Source: an uncultured Candidatus Saccharibacteria bacterium | Lineage (GTDB): Bacteria; Patescibacteriota; Minisyncoccia; Phycocordibacterales; PCTT01 | Reading direction: 5' to 3' | NCBI GenBank assembly: GCA_964566505.1 | Contig: CAZMIM010000001.1 | Coordinates: forward strand, 199,690 to 263,689 | DNA length: 64,000 nt | Part shown: positions 2,165-61,544 of the stretch, one piece after another | Position numbering within the stretch: the first letter of the stretch is position 1 | Layout of the letters: each line of letters begins with the position of its first letter | The notes under the pieces: generated by a model | What the model saw: the letters and a program-made list of their open reading frames with translations, nothing else | Databases searched by the model: none | Told to the model about the DNA's origin: nothing | Program-made: the position numbers and the translations under genes

Positions 2165-5100
2165 ATGTTTTCATTTTGGTCATTTTTTCTTAAGAATAAA
2201 CGATTCAGCCAACTGATTCTCATAGCCCTTATCGGAGCAGGGCTTGTTTCTCTATTCTCTATCCCAAAAGAATCAAATCCTGAAGTAGAGGTTCCTATCG
2301 GAGTTGTGAGCACATTTCTACCTGGAGGTTCTGCAGAAGATGTAGAAACACTCATTACAAATGAGATTGAATCAGGTCTGCAAAATCTTGATGAGGTAAA
2401 GAAAATCACATCAACATCAGCATCGCGTATCTCAAGTATCGTGGTTGAATTTGATGCGAGCGCAAATATAGACAAGGCTATCCAAGACCTCAAAGACGCA
2501 GTGGACACGGTAGCACCAAACCTACCATCAGAAGCAGAAGACCCAGTAGTGGCACAAGTAGATTTCTCTGCTGAGCCAATAATGATTATCTCTGTAGCGA
2601 CCGACAGACCTGCACCAGAGGTAGTATCACTTGCACAAACAATAGAGCGAGAGCTCAAGCGTATTCCAGGTGTATCAGATGTAACTCCACAAGGACTTCG
2701 TGAGCGAGAGGTGCAAGTAATCGTAAACCAAGAGCGACTCCAAGCATTTGGACTTTCTACAGACACTGTTGTTAGAGCGCTTTCAGGAACAAACAGCTCT
2801 CTTCCAGTAGGGACAATCAAAACAAATGGAATCGTATACCCTGTTTCATTCAACGGAGACATAAAAGACCCAAATGAAATCCCTGATATTGCAATCGCAA
2901 ACAACAATGGATTCCCTATATACATTAGAGACATTGCCGATGTATCTATTGGAGTAGAGGAAGCGTCTACTATCTCTCGTATCAGTCTAGAAGTAAACCC
3001 TAGCGAGAACGCAATTTCTTTTTCAGTATTCAAACAAACAGGAGGAAATATTATAGAGACCACCCAGGCTGTAAGAGACAAACTTGAAGAGCTTCAAGAC
3101 GGAGGTGTGCTTTCTGACTCTGAAGTACTTGTTTCTTTTGATGTAGGAGAGTTCATAAAACAAGACCTTTCAAACCTTACATTCACAGCACTGCAAACAG
3201 TCCTTTTGGTAATGATTATTCTATTCTTGGCGGTTGGACTTAAAGAAGCGCTCCTTGCAGGGCTTGCTATCCCGCTTTCATTCTTGCTTTCGTTTATTGG
3301 TCTATCGGCATCTGGAAACACTGTAAACTTTGTGAGCCTTTTCTCACTTATTTTGGCGGTGGGTATTTTGGTGGACTCAGCTATTGTGATTGTTGAAGGA
3401 ATGCACGCAAATTCAATAAAGCGACAAAATGAGTCGATGAATGTTATTGCCTTTCAAACACTCAAAGAGTTCTACAAGCCACTGTTCTCAGGAACAATGA
3501 CAACCATTGCAGTGTTTTTCCCACTATTCTTTATCTCAGGTATTACTGGTGAGTTTATCGCAAGTATTCCATTTACTATGATTTTTGTGCTGACCGCATC
3601 TATTGTGGTAGCACTTGGATTCTTGCCACTTATTGCATCATCAGTCCTTAAATCACAAAGCAACAAAGAAGAAACTTCTCTTGAAGAAAAACGCGTTCGA
3701 TATTCAGACATTGTTGAGAAGTGGTACCAAAGAAAGCTGAATAAAATTCTTGGAAATAAAAAGCGGGAGAAAAAAGTAATAAAGTGGTCTGTGATTGCAT
3801 TCTTTATTGTATTTTCATTCCCTATTATCGGAATTGTTAATGTAGAATTCTTCCCACAAGAAGACTTGGATTTTGTATTTCTTGAAGTAGAAAAAGAGCG
3901 AGGAACAGTTATTGAGGATACTGATTTCGTAACACGACAAGTAGAAGAGATTTTGTATGAGAATGAAAATATTGAGTCATTTGTAACTACGGTTGGTACT
4001 GGTAGTGCGTTTGCAGGGACAGACTTTGGAGGAAGTTCTGACAATGGAAACATTGCAAATATGACCATAAACCTCAAAAAGAATCGAAAAGATTCAAGCT
4101 CAGAGGTGTCGCAACAGCTTCGCGAGGAACTCGCACTTATCAAAGAAGCAGATGTACGAGTAGTACAAACAAACAACGGACCGCCAACTGGTGCCCCTGT
4201 ACTGATTACATTTTTTGGTGACTCACTAGAAGAGCTTGAAACTCTTGCGTCACAGTCAGAAGATATACTCAAAAACATTGAAGGAACGCGTGATGTTTCT
4301 ACAAGCATTAGCGATAGCGGTACGGAGTTCCTGCTGTCTGTAGATCGCTCAAAGGCGACACAGCTTGGCCTATCTCCACTATCTATTGCACAAACACTAC
4401 GAACAGCAATCGTGGGAACGACCGCTACCACAATCAAAACTGATACTGACGATATTGATGTAGTGGTGAAGCTAAACCTTAATCCAAACTACCAAGGCCC
4501 ACATGATACAAACCGAACAACAATAGACAGCATCAGGCAGATAAGTGTGACAACACCTAGCGGTTCTGTGCTACTTGGCTCTGTACTCGATACATCACTT
4601 GATAGAAGTAGCTCAAGCATTCGACACGAGGATACAAAGCGTATCGCGAGTGTATCAAGCCAACTACAAGATGGGGCTGTCGTAGGAGCTATTGTAAGCG
4701 AGTTTCGCGCACAAATAGCAGATGGTGCACTGGTACTACCAGATACTGTTGAAATGCGTGTAGGAGGAGAAACAGAAGACGTAGACCAATCATTTAAAGA
4801 GATGGGGCTCGCATTTATTGCAGGACTTGTTTTGATGCTTGCAATACTCGTGCTTCAGTTTGATTCTATTCGATATGCCCTCTTTATACTTGCTATTATT
4901 CCATTCTCATTTATTGGAATCTTCATAGGACTCGCTCTCACAGGAAAAGCACTATCGTTCCCATCTCTTATGGGTGTGATTGCACTATCTGGAATTTTGG
5001 TAAACAACTCAATCATTCTTATTGATAAAATGAACTCTCTTCGCGAAGAGTATCCAATGCTTGCTATTCGAGATGTGGTGGTTGCGGCAAGCACATCACG

Positions 5101-5275: not shown

Positions 5276-5321
5276 TATTGAGATAGTTCGCCCGTTCTTT
5301 CCTACCAAACAAACAGTCCTC

Positions 5322-5483
5322 ATGGAACGTTTTATCAGGGTTCACCCCAAGTCTCGCGCTGGTGGTGGAAGCCGACCCAAAACCGAAGGAGGTTCTCCTT
5401 CTGAAAAAGAAGTGGGAGGAGGTCCTCTTTTCAAGTGTGGCGGTGGCAACGGACCACTCTACAAAGATGTCGGTGGTGCATAG
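5322..5483 (+). CDS. possible small Gly-rich protein (53 aa, MERFIRVHPKSRAGGGSRPKTEGGSP...), unannotated by the ORF track
   Basis: ATG..TAG ORF in a GC-rich intergenic block downstream of the RND operon, immediately before a strong bidirectional terminator. Confidence 0.2.
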   Translation: MERFIRVHPKSRAGGGSRPKTEGGSPSEKEVGGGPLFKCGGGNGPLYKDVGGA

Positions 5484-5493
5484 CATGCACCTA

Positions 5494-5530
5494 AAAACCC
5501 CAAATGCAAATGATTTGCATTTGGGGTTTT
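5494..5530. terminator. bidirectional terminator built on the 21-bp palindrome AAATGCAAATGATTTGCATTT extended by CCCC/GGGG
   Basis: Perfect hairpin aaaaccccaaatgcaaatgatttgcatttggggtttt between convergent genes. Confidence 0.65.
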
Positions 5531-20586: not shown

Positions 20587-20737
20587 GAATCCCGTAGTAT
20601 AAATTAGTTCGTTGAAGTAGTGTTAACTACTTCAACAGAGATTAATTAGATATACTTACGGGAAATGAGAGATAGACTTGGTTGTGTCGAAACCAACTTG
20701 TCTAATTAATCAAACTAATTTTTTACTACGGGATGAA
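20587..20737 (+). mobile_element. MITE-like repeat copy A (~151 bp, about 24-bp terminal inverted repeats ATCCCGTAGTA[T/A]AAATTAGTT)
   Basis: Near-identical to 22795-22946 (inverted) and 32463-32613. Internal hairpins gttgaagtagtgttaactacttcaac and ttggtttcgacacaaccaa. The terminus ...tactacgggATGAA supplies or abuts the pfkB-family start codon. Confidence 0.7.
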
Positions 20738-22237: not shown

Positions 22238-22799
22238 TAACCTCTTTATATCGAAAGCAGTCAACTGTGTGATCATTCACGAGCCCTGCCGCCTGCATGA
22301 ATGCGTATATAGTAGTAGAGCCCACAAACTTCATTCCTCTCTTCTTTAAATCTTTTGATAGAGCATCAGACTCTTTTGATGTAGTGGGTATATCTTTTTG
22401 TGTTTTACATTTGTTTATTTTTGGCGCACCTCCTACAAAACCCCAAATATAATCAGAAAAGCTTCCAAACTCTTTTTGTATTTCCTGAAACACTCGAGCG
22501 TTTGTAATTGCTCCTTCTATTTTTAATCTATTTCTAATAATTCCTGCATCTTTTAGAAGTTCTGTTTTCTTTTTCGCGTCATATTTTGCGATTTTTTTAT
22601 AGTTAAAATTATCAAACACTTTTTTAAAATTTGCTCGTTTGTGTAAAATTGTTCTCCACGAAAGACCAGCTTGGAATGTATCCAAGAGCATATATTCGAA
22701 TAGCTTCTTGTCGTCATAGCATGGCACACCCCACTCTGTATCGTGGTAGGCAATCATAAGCCCATCACTTTCCTGTGGCCAGATACATCTATTTTTCAT
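22221..22799 (-). CDS. tag: DNA-3-methyladenine glycosylase I
   Basis: YHDTEWGVP, LDTFQAGLSWRTIL and zinc-binding Cys/His pattern of Tag. Confidence 0.88.
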   Translation of the reverse strand: MKNRCIWPQESDGLMIAYHDTEWGVPCYDDKKLFEYMLLDTFQAGLSWRTILHKRANFKKVFDNFNYKKIAKYDAKKKTELLKDAGIIRNRLKIEGAITNARVFQEIQKEFGSFSDYIWGFVGGAPKINKCKTQKDIPTTSKESDALSKDLKKRGMKFVGSTTIYAFMQAAGLVNDHTVDCFRYKEVIKLKR

Positions 22800-22946
22800 C
22801 CCGTAGTAAAAAATTAGTTTGATTAATTAGACAAGTTGGTTTCGACACAACCAAGTCTATCTCTCATTTCCCGTAAGTATATCTAATTAATCTCTGTTGA
22901 AGTAGTTAACACTACTTCAACGAACTAATTTATACTACGGGATTCA
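22795..22946 (-). mobile_element. MITE-like repeat copy B (inverted relative to copy A)
   Basis: Reverse complement of copy A with a few substitutions; the terminus again abuts the tag start codon (tactacgggATGAAAAAT on the minus strand). Confidence 0.7.
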
Positions 22947-23020
22947 TAGGAATAATAATATCATCACTTTTATGATATATTGATTTTAGTTCGCACCTCT
23001 AACACAAAAAGGTATATTCA

Positions 23021-23242: not shown

Positions 23243-23272
23243 AACGGCTCAACTTTTTTAAGTTGAGCCGTT
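23243..23272. terminator. Rho-independent terminator (aacggctcaacttttttaagttgagccgtt)
   Basis: 12-bp perfect stem; same ACGGCTCA/TGAGCCGT stem family as 88-129 and 25226-25254. Confidence 0.6.
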
Positions 23273-25225: not shown

Positions 25226-25258
25226 AAACGGCTCATTTTGAAAATGAGCCGTTTATCT
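25226..25258. terminator. Rho-independent terminator (aaacggctcattttgaaaatgagccgttt), near-identical to the hairpin at 88-129
   Basis: Perfect 12-bp stem; one-base loop difference (c/g) from the first copy. Confidence 0.6.
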
Positions 25259-29640: not shown

Positions 29641-30675
29641 CTATAAACTTTTAGCTGTTTCTATAACATGCCGAACCAAAGTATTGGTATATCCCATTTC
29701 ATTGTCATACCATGCAAGTACTTTCACCATATTTCCACCAACAACCTTTGTCATTGATAAATCTACAATAGACGCATGTGTGTCTCCCACAATGTCTGAT
29801 GAAACCAATGGTTCTTCTGAGGCAGAAAGAATACCCTGCCATCGCTCTTCTTTTGCTGCTTTTCTAAATATCTCATTTACTTCCTCTACAGTGGTTTCTT
29901 TGTTGGTAATAAATGTAATATCAACAAGTGAACCTACCAAAATAGGAACCCTCACAGAAACTCCATCAAAGAAATCAATTCCTTCTACCGCTTTTGTTGT
30001 GGCAGCCGCAGCTCCTGTTGTAGTAGGAATAATATTTGTAATAGCTGCACGCCCACGACGAGGGTCTTTGTGATGTGGTGAATCTACAAGACGCTGACTT
30101 GATGTAACGCCGTGTATTGTATTGAGAACCGCTTTATCTATATCAAGAGACTCCTCCATCACAGACACCACAGGAGAGGCTGCATTTGTAGTACATGAAG
30201 CATTTGCAGATATTTTGCATGTCTTTAACTTATCGTGGTTTACGCCCATCAACACTGTTGCCCCGGGCACGTCTGATTGTGGCTCACCTTTTATTGGGGA
30301 AGAGACAACAACCTTTTTCGCACCAGCATCAATATGAGCACGAGCTCCTTCATAGCTTGCAAAAAATCCAGTCGACTCTACCACAACATCAATATCCATA
30401 TCTTTCCATGGAAGCTCTTTTGGATCTTTTACAGATAGAAAGGGGATTTCTCTTTTATTCACAATAAGCGCGGGATCATCGCCTGTACGCGCCTCAAGAG
30501 AATTAGCATATTTACCATACGCTGAGTCATACCTTAGTAGATACTCAAGGTTTTCAATGTCAGCCAAGTCATTGATGGCAACTACTTCTATCTCAGGATA
30601 ATTTTCAGAGAGACGAAAAAAAGCACGCCCAATTCTCCCAAAACCATTGATTGCTACTCTCACCTTTTTATTCAT
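29641..30675 (-). CDS. gap: type I glyceraldehyde-3-phosphate dehydrogenase
   Basis: VAINGFGRIGR Rossmann motif and ASCTTN catalytic-Cys motif. Confidence 0.93.
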   Translation of the reverse strand: MNKKVRVAINGFGRIGRAFFRLSENYPEIEVVAINDLADIENLEYLLRYDSAYGKYANSLEARTGDDPALIVNKREIPFLSVKDPKELPWKDMDIDVVVESTGFFASYEGARAHIDAGAKKVVVSSPIKGEPQSDVPGATVLMGVNHDKLKTCKISANASCTTNAASPVVSVMEESLDIDKAVLNTIHGVTSSQRLVDSPHHKDPRRGRAAITNIIPTTTGAAAATTKAVEGIDFFDGVSVRVPILVGSLVDITFITNKETTVEEVNEIFRKAAKEERWQGILSASEEPLVSSDIVGDTHASIVDLSMTKVVGGNMVKVLAWYDNEMGYTNTLVRHVIETAKSL

Positions 30676-32379: not shown

Positions 32380-32462
32380 GTAGTGTAATCACCATACTGA
32401 AAAATCCAGTAATAAAGGCGATTCTTGTTGCACGGTCCTTTAGCCATGTGTCCATAAAATTC

Positions 32463-32613
32463 TTCATCCTGTAGTAAAAAATTAGTTTGATTAATTAGAC
32501 AAGTTGGTTTCGACACAACCAAGTCTATGTATATCATTTCCCGTATGTCTAATTAATCTCTGTTGAAGTAGTTAGTACTACTTCAACGAACTAATTTATA
32601 CTACGGGATTCAT
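32463..32613 (-). mobile_element. MITE-like repeat copy C
   Basis: About 93% identical to copy B including both TIRs; overlaps the rsuA 3' end region; a 38-codon ORF (MKNFMDTWLK...) starts exactly at its terminus. Confidence 0.65.
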
Positions 32614-32660
32614 ATTTTAATTATACAATGTTCCAATCACCACAACCTATGTATTCCACA

Positions 32661-34533: not shown

Positions 34534-35208
34534 TTATTTTGATTTTGGCCACCTATTTGCCGCCTCTGGATATATTTTTGTAAGAAAATGCTCCTCACAA
34601 TCATGTTCTCTGGCAGTACACACTTCGCGTCCATATGTAATAAATCTATAGGTTAGGTCAAACCACTCATCGCGGGGTAATAACCCCATTAAATCTCTCT
34701 CAATAATGTCAGGATTCTTTGAATCCGTAAGGTCAAATTTTTGCGCAAACCTTCGCACATGTGTGTCCACCGCAATACCTTCCACCACATCATATGCATT
34801 ACCAAGAACTACATTTGCGGTCTTTCGTCCCACACCTGGAAGCTCACGCATTTCCTCCATAGTACGAGGAACTACCCCACCATATTTCTCAACAAGCGCT
34901 TTTGCCATGCCTATAATATTTTTTGCTTTGTTTTTATAAAAACCAGTAGAGTAAATATCTTTTTGAAACTCTTCTAAGTCTGCATTCGCATAATCCTCTG
35001 CAGTTTTGTACTTTTGAAACAAATCTTTTGTCACCATATTCACCCGCTCATCAGTACATTGCGCAGATAAAATAACAGCCACAAGCATCTCTAGTGGGTT
35101 TGAATATTCAAGAACTGTTTTTATCTTTCCTGGATAAGCTTCTTTGAGTGCTTTTGAGATTTTTTGTGCACGTTCTTTTCGCTCTTTATGTTTTTCCTTA
35201 TCAGACAT
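34534..35208 (-). CDS. nth: endonuclease III-like HhH-GPD DNA glycosylase
   Basis: HhH motif LPGVGRKTANVVL; HhH-GPD fold. Only two C-terminal Cys, so possibly lacks a complete FeS cluster. Confidence 0.75.
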   Translation of the reverse strand: MSDKEKHKERKERAQKISKALKEAYPGKIKTVLEYSNPLEMLVAVILSAQCTDERVNMVTKDLFQKYKTAEDYANADLEEFQKDIYSTGFYKNKAKNIIGMAKALVEKYGGVVPRTMEEMRELPGVGRKTANVVLGNAYDVVEGIAVDTHVRRFAQKFDLTDSKNPDIIERDLMGLLPRDEWFDLTYRFITYGREVCTAREHDCEEHFLTKIYPEAANRWPKSK

Positions 35209-35636
35209 TAGATTTCTATTTTCTTACACACATATGCACCCAGAATAAAAAGAAGAAGAGATAGAGTTGCCGATATCATACAATACTGACAAATAGCATT
35301 TAAAACAAAGAGCTGTAGATAAACAAGATATAGACTTACGCCCAATCCAATCAACGGAAGTACTAGGAGCTTTTTAGCAAACGCCATATTTTTTGACCCA
35401 AGCACATAAAGACCCCCAAAGAAAAGTGATAGGTAGAAAAGAAGCCCGAACCCAGCAAGGGGAACACCAAACACTTCTGAATATATACTTGAAAGCACAA
35501 CATCACATCCTTCTACAATAGAGCAAATTACTTCTGTGTTTGAAAGATGAGAAATAGTTAAATACCCAGAATCAAGGATTCCTACAAATGATAGTAAAAC
35601 AATTATCCAAAATGTTGCTTGAACTTTTTCTGACAT
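35208..35636 (-). CDS. vitamin K epoxide reductase (VKOR) family membrane oxidoreductase
   Basis: Loop Cys pair (CSIVEGC) and TM CxxC (CQYC) in a 4-TM scaffold. Confidence 0.65.
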   Translation of the reverse strand: MSEKVQATFWIIVLLSFVGILDSGYLTISHLSNTEVICSIVEGCDVVLSSIYSEVFGVPLAGFGLLFYLSLFFGGLYVLGSKNMAFAKKLLVLPLIGLGVSLYLVYLQLFVLNAICQYCMISATLSLLLFILGAYVCKKIEI

Positions 35637-35641
35637 AGTCT

Positions 35642-36070
35642 CTATTTAGATGAACACCGATCACATGTGCCGAACATTTCAAAAGAGTGGTCTGTGATTT
35701 TGTTAAACTTCTCAGACTGCTCTAGTACTTGCCTAGAAAGAGAATCTGACTCACATATATAAAACTTTTCTATATAACCACAATCAGTACATACGATATG
35801 GTGGTGATGATCATCTCCATTAAATTCATAAAACATACTATCACGACGCATATCGACTTCTCGAAGTATTCCTTTATCTTTAAATAGTTTTAGATTTCGA
35901 TAAATCGTAACAAAGTGCACACCGCTATCTGCAAGAACATCAATAACATCGTCTGCACTAAATGGCCCCGAAAAAGCCATCACGATTGAGATTAGTTTGA
36001 TTCGCAAAGATGTAGATTTGATACCAGCAGAAGATAAAATTGATTTTGCTGAAGAGTTGTTTGAATGCAT
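35642..36070 (-). CDS. Fur-family metalloregulator (Zur-like by context)
   Basis: Winged-helix HFVTIYRNLKLF...; His-rich HHHH..CTDCG and C-terminal CDRC metal sites; divergent from the ZIP transporter. Confidence 0.85.
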   Translation of the reverse strand: MHSNNSSAKSILSSAGIKSTSLRIKLISIVMAFSGPFSADDVIDVLADSGVHFVTIYRNLKLFKDKGILREVDMRRDSMFYEFNGDDHHHHIVCTDCGYIEKFYICESDSLSRQVLEQSEKFNKITDHSFEMFGTCDRCSSK

Positions 36071-36124
36071 AGTAAAATATTACGTTGACATCAATATAGG
36101 GCTATATTACACTGTCTCTGGACT

Positions 36125-36145
36125 AAATGCAAATGATTTGCATTT
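36125..36145. promoter_or_regulatory. perfect 10-1-10 palindrome AAATGCAAATgATTTGCATTT in the fur/ZIP divergent promoter; candidate Fur/Zur operator
   Basis: Lies 38 bp upstream of the ZIP ATG and 55 bp upstream of the fur start; the same 21-mer recurs at 5502-5522 and 61204-61224. Confidence 0.4.
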
Positions 36146-36182
36146 GAAATAGGAGAGAGAAAACCTCAAAAAACACGAAAAA

Positions 36183-36947
36183 ATGAGCGTAGTCACATAC
36201 ACACTACTCGCTGCATCTTCAATAATGCTTATTTCACTCGTGGGAGTATTGTTTACATGGACTACCTTCAAAGTATTCATGGAACGAAACCTCCCCTACC
36301 TCGGCGCATTGTCTGCCGGAGTGTTTGGGATTGTAGCATTGCACTTAATTATGGAAGCGGCGCACATACTCGAAAATACTGCGATGATTGTATTGTATGC
36401 AGTCGTTGGAGTGTTTGCTCTCTGGAAGATTGGTACATGGTTTCCAGAGTCACACCACCACGAATCAGCCGAGTGCACAGACACTCATTCAAAGCGTGGC
36501 GCAAAGCACATGCTTATAGGAGACTCTCTTTGTAATATTGCCGATGGAGCCATTATCGCTCCTGCGTTTATGATAAGCGTACCACTTGGTATAAGCGCAA
36601 CAATCGGCATACTCACGCACGAAATCGTGCAAGAGATTGGAGAGTTCTTTCTATACAAAAAAGCAGGATACAGTACCAGAAAAGCCCTTGCGCTAAACTT
36701 CCTGTCTGCATCTACGATTTTCATCGGGGCTGGAGCAGGACTTGTTTTATCTCAACAACAGGATTTTCTTGGACCACTTCTTGCTATGGCTGGTGGAGGC
36801 TTCATCTATATGGTGATAGTCGACATGATGCCAAGCTCGTACAAAACAATGAAAGCTTCAGGAAAATACAGACAACACGGCCTTTCCTTTGTTGCTGGCG
36901 TTGTTTTGATGACAACTGTTTTGCTTTTTGGGCACATGGGACATTAA
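36183..36947 (+). CDS. zupT: ZIP-family divalent metal (zinc) transporter
   Basis: HEIVQEIGEF and His-rich loop HHHESAECTDTH; 8-TM ZIP architecture. Confidence 0.85.
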   Translation: MSVVTYTLLAASSIMLISLVGVLFTWTTFKVFMERNLPYLGALSAGVFGIVALHLIMEAAHILENTAMIVLYAVVGVFALWKIGTWFPESHHHESAECTDTHSKRGAKHMLIGDSLCNIADGAIIAPAFMISVPLGISATIGILTHEIVQEIGEFFLYKKAGYSTRKALALNFLSASTIFIGAGAGLVLSQQQDFLGPLLAMAGGGFIYMVIVDMMPSSYKTMKASGKYRQHGLSFVAGVVLMTTVLLFGHMGH

Positions 36948-47173: not shown

Positions 47174-47503
47174 AGATTTTTTAATGACGAATAAATCTTA
47201 TGGCGGGTAACAAAAAGCCCGCCACCAAGTAGAGCCGAAGCTCATATCCCAAGTTTCCCTGGAATAGCTCAAGGAGAGACCCTTGATGACGGGTTCTTTA
47301 TTCTCCTTGAGACTTTTATATTCGGACCATACCGCCACAAACGTGTCGGGTTAGGTCGCTATATTGTGATGTCGAGCTCTTCGCTCAACATATACATAAT
47401 ATCGCTAAATAAAGGTGGTGTTAAGCAAGAAGCGAGTATGCGACGAATCACTGGTTCTGCATAGCTTAGCAAGACTAGTTTTCTCTGGCATTAATGGTTC
47501 CCT

Positions 47504-52183: not shown

Positions 52184-52257
52184 TGGCTGCCGGACAGGGA
52201 CTCGAACCCCGATTTCTTGGACCAAAACCAAGCGTCCTGCCATTAGACGATCCGGCA
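52184..52257 (-). tRNA. tRNA-Gln (anticodon UUG), U1-A72 pair, G73, CCA encoded
   Basis: UGCCGGA/UCCGGCA acceptor, anticodon stem CUUGG/CCAAG with loop UUUUGGU, T-arm CGGGGUUCGAGUCCCUG. Confidence 0.85.
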
Positions 52258-52316
52258 ATGTATTTAATTTTTATATATCTGCCAAATTTCAAGGTCCAAC
52301 TTGGACCGCAATACAA

Positions 52317-52349
52317 AATCTTGCAAGCATCCTACCATTAGACGATCCG
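52317..52349 (-). repeat. 30-bp direct duplicate (1 mismatch) of the tRNA-Gln 5' end plus 4-nt upstream flank; head of a degenerate pseudo-tRNA (about 52262-52349)
   Basis: cct[g/a]ccattagacgatccggcaatgtatt occurs at 52232-52264 and 52317-52349; the downstream part has lost the anticodon and T-arm pairing. Confidence 0.6.
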
Positions 52350-52419
52350 GCAATGTATTACCTAAAAACTGGCAATATACAAAACAGATTACCGTAGTAA
52401 TCTGCTTTGTGCAACGAAT

Positions 52420-60755: not shown

Positions 60756-61205
60756 ATGCATGACAAAATACAACAACAAATGCAGGACGCTCTCAAAGCG
60801 CGAGACGAGCTAAGACTCTCTGTGCTTCGAGGAATGATTTCTGCATTTACAAATGAGCTTGTGGCAACAAAAAGAACACCGCAAGAAAAGCTAGCGGATG
60901 ACGAGGTTATTGCAGTTATTACTCGACTCGCAAAGCAAAGAAAAGAGTCTATTACACAGTTTAATGCTGGAAATCGACCTGATTTAGCAGAAAAAGAAGA
61001 AAAAGAGCTCTCTATTCTCCAAGAGTACCTCCCTGAAATGATAAGTATGGATGAAATAAAGAAGGTTGTGGAAGAGAAAAAATCTTCACTTGGTGTAGAA
61101 GACAAAAGCAAAATGGGAATGCTTATGGGAGCTGTTATGGGAGAATTGAAAGGAAAAGCAGAAGGAAATGACGTAAAACAAGCTGTAGAAGAAGCTCTTT
61201 CCTAA
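60756..61205 (+). CDS. yqeY: GatB/YqeY domain protein
   Basis: MQDALKARDELRLSVLRGMISAFTNE ... helical YqeY domain; the ORF extends upstream to 60705. Confidence 0.78.
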   Translation: MHDKIQQQMQDALKARDELRLSVLRGMISAFTNELVATKRTPQEKLADDEVIAVITRLAKQRKESITQFNAGNRPDLAEKEEKELSILQEYLPEMISMDEIKKVVEEKKSSLGVEDKSKMGMLMGAVMGELKGKAEGNDVKQAVEEALS

Positions 61206-61224
61206 ATGCAAATGATTTGCATTT
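61204..61224. repeat. third copy of the 21-bp palindrome AAATGCAAATGATTTGCATTT, overlapping the yqeY stop codon
   Basis: Identical 21-mer to 5502-5522 and 36125-36145; followed by a separate terminator at 61231-61256. Confidence 0.6.
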
Positions 61225-61230
61225 GGCTGT

Positions 61231-61256
61231 CAGACCGCTCAATAGAGCGGTTTTTG
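61231..61256 (+). terminator. Rho-independent terminator (accgctcaatagagcggttttt)
   Basis: 7-bp stem plus T5. Confidence 0.55.
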
Positions 61257-61544
61257 ATTTATATATACATATACATGTGTATAACCATGTTGATAACTTT
61301 CTAATATCTAAATAATAAGTCTCTGATAACCTTAGGATATCTTTACTCCAAAAACACAAAGTCCCCACAAATGTGGGGATTTTTATGTGGATAAAATGTT
61401 TATTGAGAGCTTATTACAGAAGCTTCCTGTATCTCCCCTCCCATTTTTAGCTCTACATACTGGCTCGCAAGCACTAAAAGTGCAGACAGTGCAATAATTC
61501 CCGCAAATCCAAGTAGAAATTTAAAATAACTTTTGTTGAACATA

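Follow-up and report, generated by a model that had tools for sequence, protein, structure and literature searches.

A perfect 21-bp palindrome between a Fur-family regulator gene and a ZIP transporter gene of a Patescibacterium, a putative Zur-type operator with two further copies at convergent gene ends

Binding sites that resemble the element described here are known from Clostridium thermocellum, Magnetospirillum gryphiswaldense and Bacillus subtilis. DAP-seq of the regulator Fur_1691 of C. thermocellum yielded the motif TGCAAATcATTTGCA at a site that precedes a zinc ABC transporter (PMC8457756), and Fur of M. gryphiswaldense was co-crystallised with TTAATTGCAAATCATTTGCAATTGC (PMC4506495). 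For Zur of B. subtilis a 9-1-9 inverted repeat was found to be minimal for tight binding; ChIP-chip further revealed that Zur binds functional consensus-like boxes outside promoters in vivo, without a clear regulatory output, and many of these non-promoter boxes are near genes of the thiol or disulfide-stress response (PMC4324032). In a number of Bacillota, Zur controls its own expression (PMC6103462). A literature search found no paper on a Zur regulator in Patescibacteria.

We analysed a 64-kb stretch of Patescibacteria DNA, which is called the window in the following. The 21-mer AAATGCAAATGATTTGCATTT, a perfect 10-1-10 palindrome, is present in the window in three exact copies at 5502-5522 (copy 1), 36125-36145 (copy 2) and 61204-61224 (copy 3). 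An earlier note on this DNA had described a 21-bp palindrome of 10-1-10 architecture in a divergent fur-ZIP promoter and two more identical 21-mers in the window; the sequence at 36125-36145 indeed reads as described, and both other sites were recovered by the pattern search. The three copies compare with an expectation of 0.05, and none of 100 dinucleotide-preserving shuffles of the window reached three. All three have the centre AAATgATTT, making an AT-rich inverted repeat with the central G on the plus strand. When both strands of the window were searched with up to three mismatches, no degenerate copies (one to three mismatches) were found, and half-sites were not enriched in the window (19 found, 15.6 expected), showing that there is no cloud of degenerate copies of the 21-mer around the perfect ones. 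The nearest approach to the 15-nt core elsewhere in the window was a single intragenic site at 30205 with two mismatches. An assembly artefact is ruled out, because the three sites were reproduced in short contigs (L115-L118) of independent assemblies from two sequencing runs. A search of the three sites and of the structured spacer 5276-5500 against Rfam gave no match, only chance ones below the threshold.

Copy 2 is located between two divergent genes, and the features of this region are as follows.

35208 to 35636, minus strand: VKOR-family gene (Pfam VKOR, E = 4e-27).
35642 to 36070, minus strand: Fur-family metalloregulator gene, 142 aa (Pfam FUR, E = 3e-20).
36085 to 36113, plus strand: predicted sigma-70-type promoter of the ZIP gene (TTGACA, 17-nt spacer, TACACT; 10 of 12 matches in the consensus scan).
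36125 to 36145, no strand assigned: copy 2, a perfect palindrome and putative Fur-family (Zur-type) operator common to the two divergent genes.
36183 to 36947, plus strand: ZIP-family metal transporter gene (Pfam Zip, E = 9e-21).

The box is 37 nt away from the ATG of the ZIP gene (36183) and 54 nt away from the ATG of the Fur-family gene (36070, complement strand), so that the distances of 38 and 55 bp given earlier agree within the counting convention. It starts 11 nt behind the end of the predicted ZIP promoter (36113) and would, reckoned from this promoter, span the ZIP transcript from approximately +5 to +25. Read on the opposite strand, the half-site of the box is TTTGCA, a weak -35-like hexamer 18 nt upstream of TAATAT; the pair scored under the threshold of the scanner, and from our reading of the sequence it could be a candidate promoter of the Fur-family gene. 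The VKOR gene follows the Fur-family gene on the same strand at a distance of 5 nt (ORF list), and the two probably form one transcription unit. The Fur-family protein has a HHHH run and CxxC pairs; it is presumed to bind the box and to be autoregulated, and the ZIP gene is the presumed regulated target. No T run follows copy 2. In sum, copy 2 combines a palindrome with an AATnATT centre, a position behind the predicted promoter of a metal-uptake gene, a FUR gene only 54 nt away and recurrence in other genomes. The position at the promoter of an uptake gene was found for copy 2 only; copies 1 and 3 are located between the ends of convergent genes.

The recurrence was determined by a scan of 596 Gb, with one genome per species, for the exact 21-mer with the central base left free. 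At least 114 loci with at least 115 sites were found in unrelated bacteria, compared to approximately 2-3 expected by chance, by our own estimate for 596 Gb at 30-40% G+C. The matches listed are mostly from Bacillota (Clostridia, Lachnospiraceae, Butyrivibrio, Erysipelotrichaceae, Mollicutes), 13 of the listed loci are from Patescibacteria, and scattered ones among them are from Bacteroidota, Spirochaetota, Campylobacterota, Verrucomicrobiota, Myxococcota and Proteobacteria. Among the listed sites the central base was G or C in 85 of 115. The central G shared by the three copies in the window is weak evidence at best, because the central base has no general orientation bias relative to the regulated gene: the ZnuA-neighboured boxes of the listed loci have G 21 times and C 20 times.

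ORFs starting beside each site, on either side, were scanned against Pfam. Among the matches listed, the flanking ORFs belonged to ZnuA (52), ArsP_2 (19), FUR (15), ABC_tran (7), Zip (4) and cobW (3), and a neighbour of the metal-homeostasis type was present at 90 of the 112 sites that were listed after clustering. Counted as such were ZnuA-type binding proteins, ArsP_2 permeases, FUR, ZIP, ABC ATPases, CobW and a MinD/CbiA-like P-loop NTPase, the last of which was found in three Patescibacteria. The ZnuA-type neighbours had their top scores against the zinc-type models AdcA and AztC. By a crude gene model, genes were arranged in tandem or divergently at the box in 79 of the 114 loci listed and convergently in only one of them, and among these matches the box often follows a -10-like hexamer and precedes the ribosome-binding site. 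The layout of the window, i.e. fur, box and ZIP, is present in three Patescibacteria loci (L026, L027 and L078), and in a fourth one (L071) the box is directly upstream of ZIP. Among the proteins tested, the Fur-family protein of the window was closest to the box-adjacent Fur-family proteins of L078 (38% identity) and L077 (33%), with E-values of approximately 1e-30, and its ZIP protein was 39% and 33% identical to the box-adjacent ZIP proteins of L026 and L078, respectively. The relatives of the proteins of the window come from MAGs of Patescibacteria/Parcubacteria; the nearest genome on record, GCA_041601015.1, had 66-77% identity in the three proteins compared.

The inner 15 nt of the box, TGCAAATsATTTGCA (7-1-7), are identical to the motif of the zinc regulator of C. 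thermocellum. The identical core is also the Fur operator upstream of feoAB1 in M. gryphiswaldense (PMC4506495). Since the core is bound in these published data, it is a proven recognition sequence of Fur-family proteins, while the metal is not fixed by the core alone. The view of the earlier note that the promoter copy is a Zur/Fur box has thereby gained strong support, both from the gene context in other genomes and from the published binding to the identical core (PMC8457756, PMC4506495). We consider it likely that the 21-mer is a high-affinity operator of the adjacent Fur-family regulator and that this regulator is most probably a zinc sensor (Zur). One box at 36125 would then serve two divergent promoters: it is located just downstream of the predicted ZIP promoter (approximately +5 to +25) and overlaps the weak -35-like TTTGCA of the Fur-family gene. 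A metal-loaded repressor dimer on the box would therefore shut off the ZIP importer as well as its own operon with the Fur-family gene and VKOR, and under metal shortage the repressor would release both. We infer the promoter, the logic of repression and the signal, which from the neighbour genes in other genomes would be zinc rather than iron or manganese. In mechanism the promoter copy would be an ordinary Zur/Fur operator, which to our knowledge is undescribed for Patescibacteria.

The same operator could be under the control of a Fur-family protein that responds to iron or manganese (Fur/Mur-type) instead of zinc. Typing of the regulator as Zur, Fur or PerR by NCBIfam gave no assignment, with every model below the cut-off. 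Its top matches among solved structures were Fur, PerR and Zur proteins, with Fur proteins as the best, and the protein scores higher on Fur and PerR models and structures than on Zur. Besides, the operator with the identical core in the alphaproteobacterium Magnetospirillum belongs to Fur and is upstream of feoAB1 (PMC4506495), ZIP and ZnuA-family (PF01297) proteins include manganese and iron carriers, and a few of the matches listed are in Alphaproteobacteria (L003, L063 and L097). Against iron or manganese, the box neighbours in Bacillota fit AdcA/AztC-type, i.e. zinc, models best, CobW/COG0523 GTPases are present, and siderophore, Feo and haem genes are absent from the common neighbours among the matches listed. 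Altogether, iron or manganese as the signal appears unlikely to us, and zinc is kept as the probable signal in the following.

Next to the promoter copy, the two other copies have to be explained. Having the same sequence as the operator, copies 1 and 3 should be bound by the same protein, but they are not classical operators, because both are located between convergent gene ends. Of the earlier proposal that a regulator site is re-used at several loci, the threefold occurrence of one sequence stands; a re-use in promoters does not, since both copies have the convergent arrangement that was seen in only one of the 114 loci listed. That they are operators of an unannotated gene or a small RNA was considered and rejected: the consensus scan found no promoter-like site beside copy 1 or beside copy 3, and the small ORFs nearby look spurious.

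The first of these copies is part of a larger structure.

5494 to 5530, no strand assigned: hairpin of the bidirectional terminator type with perfect 18-nt arms, flanked on each side by A and T runs; copy 1 (5502-5522) is its apex.

It lies where the end of a HlyD-AcrB-type RND pump operon (plus strand) meets the end of a thioredoxin-like gene (minus strand). Here, the 21-mer is extended by AAAACCCC/GGGGTTTT to the arms 5494-5511 and 5513-5530 (AAAACCCCAAATGCAAAT / ATTTGCATTTGGGGTTTT), the hairpin folds with approximately -24 kcal/mol on either strand, and the stem is followed by TTTTGTG on the plus and by TTTTT on the minus strand. This feature of intrinsic terminators was found at copy 1 only, and the extension of the 5502 palindrome into a bidirectional terminator, which had been noted before, was thus confirmed by perfect arms, stability on both strands and T runs. 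The TM4-region motif of the pump, VDSAIVIVEG, presumably resembles the AcrB type more than the Czc type; a heavy-metal (Czc-type) exporter was considered for the pump and rejected on this likeness, and a link to zinc is not claimed.

The nearest relative (L158) has the same gene order, with 66% identity in the thioredoxin-like protein and 69% in AcrB, and its spacer downstream of AcrB reads CCACCTCT-TGCAAATGATTTGCA-AGAGGTGG. It contains the 15-nt core of copy 1 with the central G in the same orientation, and the outer stem is different yet complementary. In 221.5 kb of Patescibacteria loci that had been fetched for other reasons, this was the only match to the core with up to two mismatches. 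On the AcrB-sense strand, the hairpin of L158 gains further pairs, G.U among them, and comes to -40.7 kcal/mol, a value attained by none of 1000 flank shuffles; on the opposite strand it showed no excess stability compared to flank shuffles. The extension by G.U pairs on one strand only points to selection on the RNA structure and not on a DNA site. The hairpin of L158 has no T run and is located beyond a separate terminator. Two more distant relatives (AcrB 65% and 63%) have ordinary terminators at that spot and no core. Since the core is kept in sequence and the stem is kept by compensatory change, copy 1 is a conserved element with two signatures. The compensatory change would have acted at least partly at the RNA level, and in our view copy 1 probably acts as a hairpin that either terminates transcripts or stabilises their 3' ends. 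A bound repressor may add a roadblock atop this terminator, which is speculative.

Copy 3 and its surroundings differ from this.

61204 to 61224, no strand assigned: copy 3, an orphan box that overlaps the yqeY stop codon, between convergent genes.
61232 to 61253, plus strand: a separate intrinsic-terminator-like hairpin directly after copy 3 (consensus scan and fold).

The overlap with the yqeY stop codon that had been reported for the 61204 copy was confirmed and amounts to the last two bases of the TAA (61203-61205). The hairpin of copy 3 itself has no T run. In 39 distantly related yqeY loci from metagenomes (41-63% identity), neither the box nor anything similar was seen behind the gene, and it is also absent after yqeY in the syntenic relatives L167 (77%) and L168 (69%), which have the same order of ATPase, DUF389, yqeY and TPR genes. 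Its absence in the relatives makes copy 3 a gain specific to the lineage of the window, and by this comparison probably a recent one. Copies 2 and 3 share six of nine left-flank bases and the G of the right flank (family D7), a likeness that may hint at copying, as weak evidence. A cluster of DnaA-box-like sequences was observed beside copy 3, and the GC skew around 61 kb gave no clear call for this cluster as a replication origin.

The 21-mer could also belong to a family of palindromic repeats that are REP-like or miniature mobile elements, and its promoter position at 36125 would then be incidental. In favour of this, it is present in three identical copies in 64 kb, and two of these are extragenic and located between convergent genes, as REP elements typically are; the shared flank bases of copies 2 and 3 and other short repeated hairpin families in the window point the same way. 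The earlier note had raised this as an alternative, a REP-like repeat that merely sits in a promoter, and it is not supported by the comparison with other genomes. The same 21-mer is found beside metal-uptake genes across many phyla, where a lineage-specific repeat would not be expected and where it is best read as a pan-bacterial operator; the fur-box-ZIP module is kept in other Patescibacteria; degenerate copies are absent from the window, and neither target duplications nor a GTAG-type head were found in the sequence. We regard such a repeat family as highly improbable.

An explanation that concerns copies 1 and 3 only is that they serve purely as hairpins, in RNA or DNA, for termination, 3'-end stabilisation or processing, with an identity to the operator that has no regulatory meaning and with no role for the repressor. 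Both are indeed at 3' ends between convergent genes, copy 1 folds into a hairpin of -24 kcal/mol between flanking A and T runs, and in L158 the outer stem has changed and stayed complementary, with the G.U extension to -40.7 kcal/mol (0 of 1000 shuffles) on the pump-sense strand only. Furthermore, there are other repeated terminator palindromes in the window, so that recurrence of short palindromes at gene ends is a feature of the source genome. This explanation does not account for the identity of the 15 nt at the apex to a protein operator, nor for the preservation of the core in two genomes whose orthologues share only 66-77% identity and whose spacers have otherwise diverged. Termination is not an obvious job for the hairpin of L158, which lacks a T run and is located beyond a separate terminator, and a site of perfect consensus would be expected to be occupied by the repressor whatever else its role. 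Hairpins without any regulatory meaning are possible rather than probable in our judgement. A combination of both roles can be pictured, in which, in two or more genera of Patescibacteria, the operator core has become part of a conserved, strand-specific 3' hairpin behind an RND pump operon, with dual use as DNA for the zinc repressor and as RNA terminator or stabiliser; the metal status would gate read-through or collision of the convergent operons, and in the lineage of the window such hairpins with an operator core would be reaching other gene ends as well. We consider this combination a doubtful, speculative proposal.

A confident assignment of regulator, operator and target is useful for the annotation of Patescibacteria (CPR), since these bacteria have very few recognisable regulators and are hard to grow. 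With one exact 21-mer operator that is common to many phyla, metagenomes could also be searched conveniently for zinc regulons. On a small scale, the orphan copies offer a concrete case for the role of perfect operators outside promoters, a question that the ChIP work on B. subtilis did not settle (PMC4324032).

Compared to known systems, the promoter copy is most readily set beside the Fur_1691 site of C. thermocellum, which is likewise located in the promoter of a zinc importer with the gene of the Fur-family regulator adjoining the target. Unlike there, the target in the window is a ZIP permease and not an ABC transporter, the host is a Patescibacterium, and there are two extra copies outside promoters. 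The feoAB1 operator of M. gryphiswaldense has the same core, TGCAAATCATTTGCA, on which one Fur-family dimer was bound in the crystal, but its flanks are AATTGCAAAT compared to AAATGCAAAT in the window, its regulator senses iron or manganese and its regulon differs. The Zur box of B. subtilis has the consensus AAATCGTAATNATTACGATTT and shares with the box of the window the 10-1-10 architecture, the outer AAAT/ATTT, the inner AATnATT and the overlap with a sigma-A-type promoter. The half-sites of the window differ from it at three positions each (GCA versus CGT), and it is these three half-site positions that set the Zur, Fur and PerR boxes of B. subtilis apart. The REP/BIME elements of Enterobacteria are, like the copies in the window, palindromic, extragenic, often located between convergent genes and able to form 3' hairpins; the 21-mer differs from them in being a cross-phylum operator of tiny copy number (3 in 64 kb), without a GTAG head and without imperfect copies. 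The orphan copies are similar to the Zur boxes found outside promoters in B. subtilis: copy 1 abuts a thioredoxin-like gene, and the operon of the Fur-family gene includes VKOR. The B. subtilis boxes are intragenic and imperfect, whereas the copies in the window are perfect and located between convergent genes, one of them inside a strong hairpin.

Among the matches listed, the perfect box was found embedded in a longer perfect palindrome far more often than expected by chance across genomes: at 16 of the 118 sites each arm of the palindrome was longer by 4 nt or more, where approximately one such site was expected by our own estimate. Longer palindromes around the box were found, among others, in the following loci from other genomes:

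L112, 1153-1213: box extended by 20 nt, giving a perfect palindrome of 61 bp
L069, 2797-2841: box extended by 12 nt and accompanied by runs of A and T
L074, 4252-4290: longer palindrome around the box

Extra contacts of the regulator, a role as terminator or growth of the palindrome by template switching are possible origins of the extension. Besides, two further boxes in Patescibacteria among the matches listed are located at gene junctions which are not clear promoters, one (L005, 3267-3287) with the stop codon of a gene for a UvrD-like helicase on one side and the ksgA start on the other, and the second (L060, 1966-1986) overlapping the end of a reverse-transcriptase ORF.

In the window, a locally G+C-rich spacer of 225 nt (5276-5500) follows the stop codon for AcrB and leads up to copy 1; this spacer folded better than shuffled sequence (z = -3.4; none of 200 shuffles was as stable). 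It contains an ORF for 53 amino acids, rich in glycine (5322-5483), for which a ribosome-binding site was not visible. A search of the spacer against Rfam and Pfam gave no match, and an alignment with the spacer of L158, the syntenic relative for this region, was not possible. Adjoining copy 3, a small cluster of DnaA-box-like 9-mers was found in the spacer between yqeY and the TPR gene:

61276-61394, all on the minus strand: TTATACACA, TTATCAACA and a perfect TTATCCACA

The cluster is adjoined by an AT-rich stretch, and by eye several motifs similar to TGTGGATAA/TTATCCACA were also seen in the syntenic spacers of two relatives (L167, approximately 3405-3650, and L168, approximately 3490-3600). 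The spacer may hold the replication origin or a DnaA-box cluster.

The window contains further repeats. Palindromes of a second family are located at 97-121, 25228-25252 and 23243-23272; ACGGCTCATTTTsAAAATGAGCCGT occurs twice exactly, accompanied by the variant AACGGCTCAACTT/AAGTTGAGCCGTT. The palindromes at 23243 and 25228 lie directly 3' of ORF ends and, since A and T runs are present at all copies, the family looks like bidirectional terminators; no copy was found in the 157 other loci compared. Two intergenic repeats of ~160 nt (22791-22948 and 32459-32614) are 96-97% identical and both include the hairpin GTTGAAGTAGT-nnnn-ACTACTTCAAC, of which a third, inverted copy is present together with its flanks at 20603-20644 (hairpin at 20611-20636). 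Either a mobile element of small size or an RNA motif present in several copies may be represented by these repeats. Two RNA features were also located:

47231-47357, minus strand: LOOT RNA motif (RF03000), matched in Rfam with 51.8 bits (gathering score 46.4)
52184-52257, minus strand: tRNA-Gln gene

The tRNA-Gln gene is overlapped by a 36-nt segment (52229-52264), of which a copy with 94% identity lies 95 nt away (52324-52359); a partial tRNA duplication like this is often the mark of an old integration site.

In three Patescibacteria among the matches listed, a gene for a MinD/CbiA-like P-loop NTPase starts directly at the box:

L048, 980-1828
L077, 1528-2541, divergent to a fur-family gene
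L080, 4788-5750

The encoded protein is a candidate zinc-regulated NTPase and perhaps takes the role held elsewhere by COG0523/CobW GTPases.

In many loci among the matches listed, the perfect box is accompanied by another, slightly imperfect box at a constant spacing, most commonly with an offset of ~57 nt (L064, L088, L104 and L110) and with 37-45 nt in L026, L027 and L077. The fixed offset suggests that binding at some promoters is cooperative or looped. The fur-ZIP promoter of the window has a single box only.
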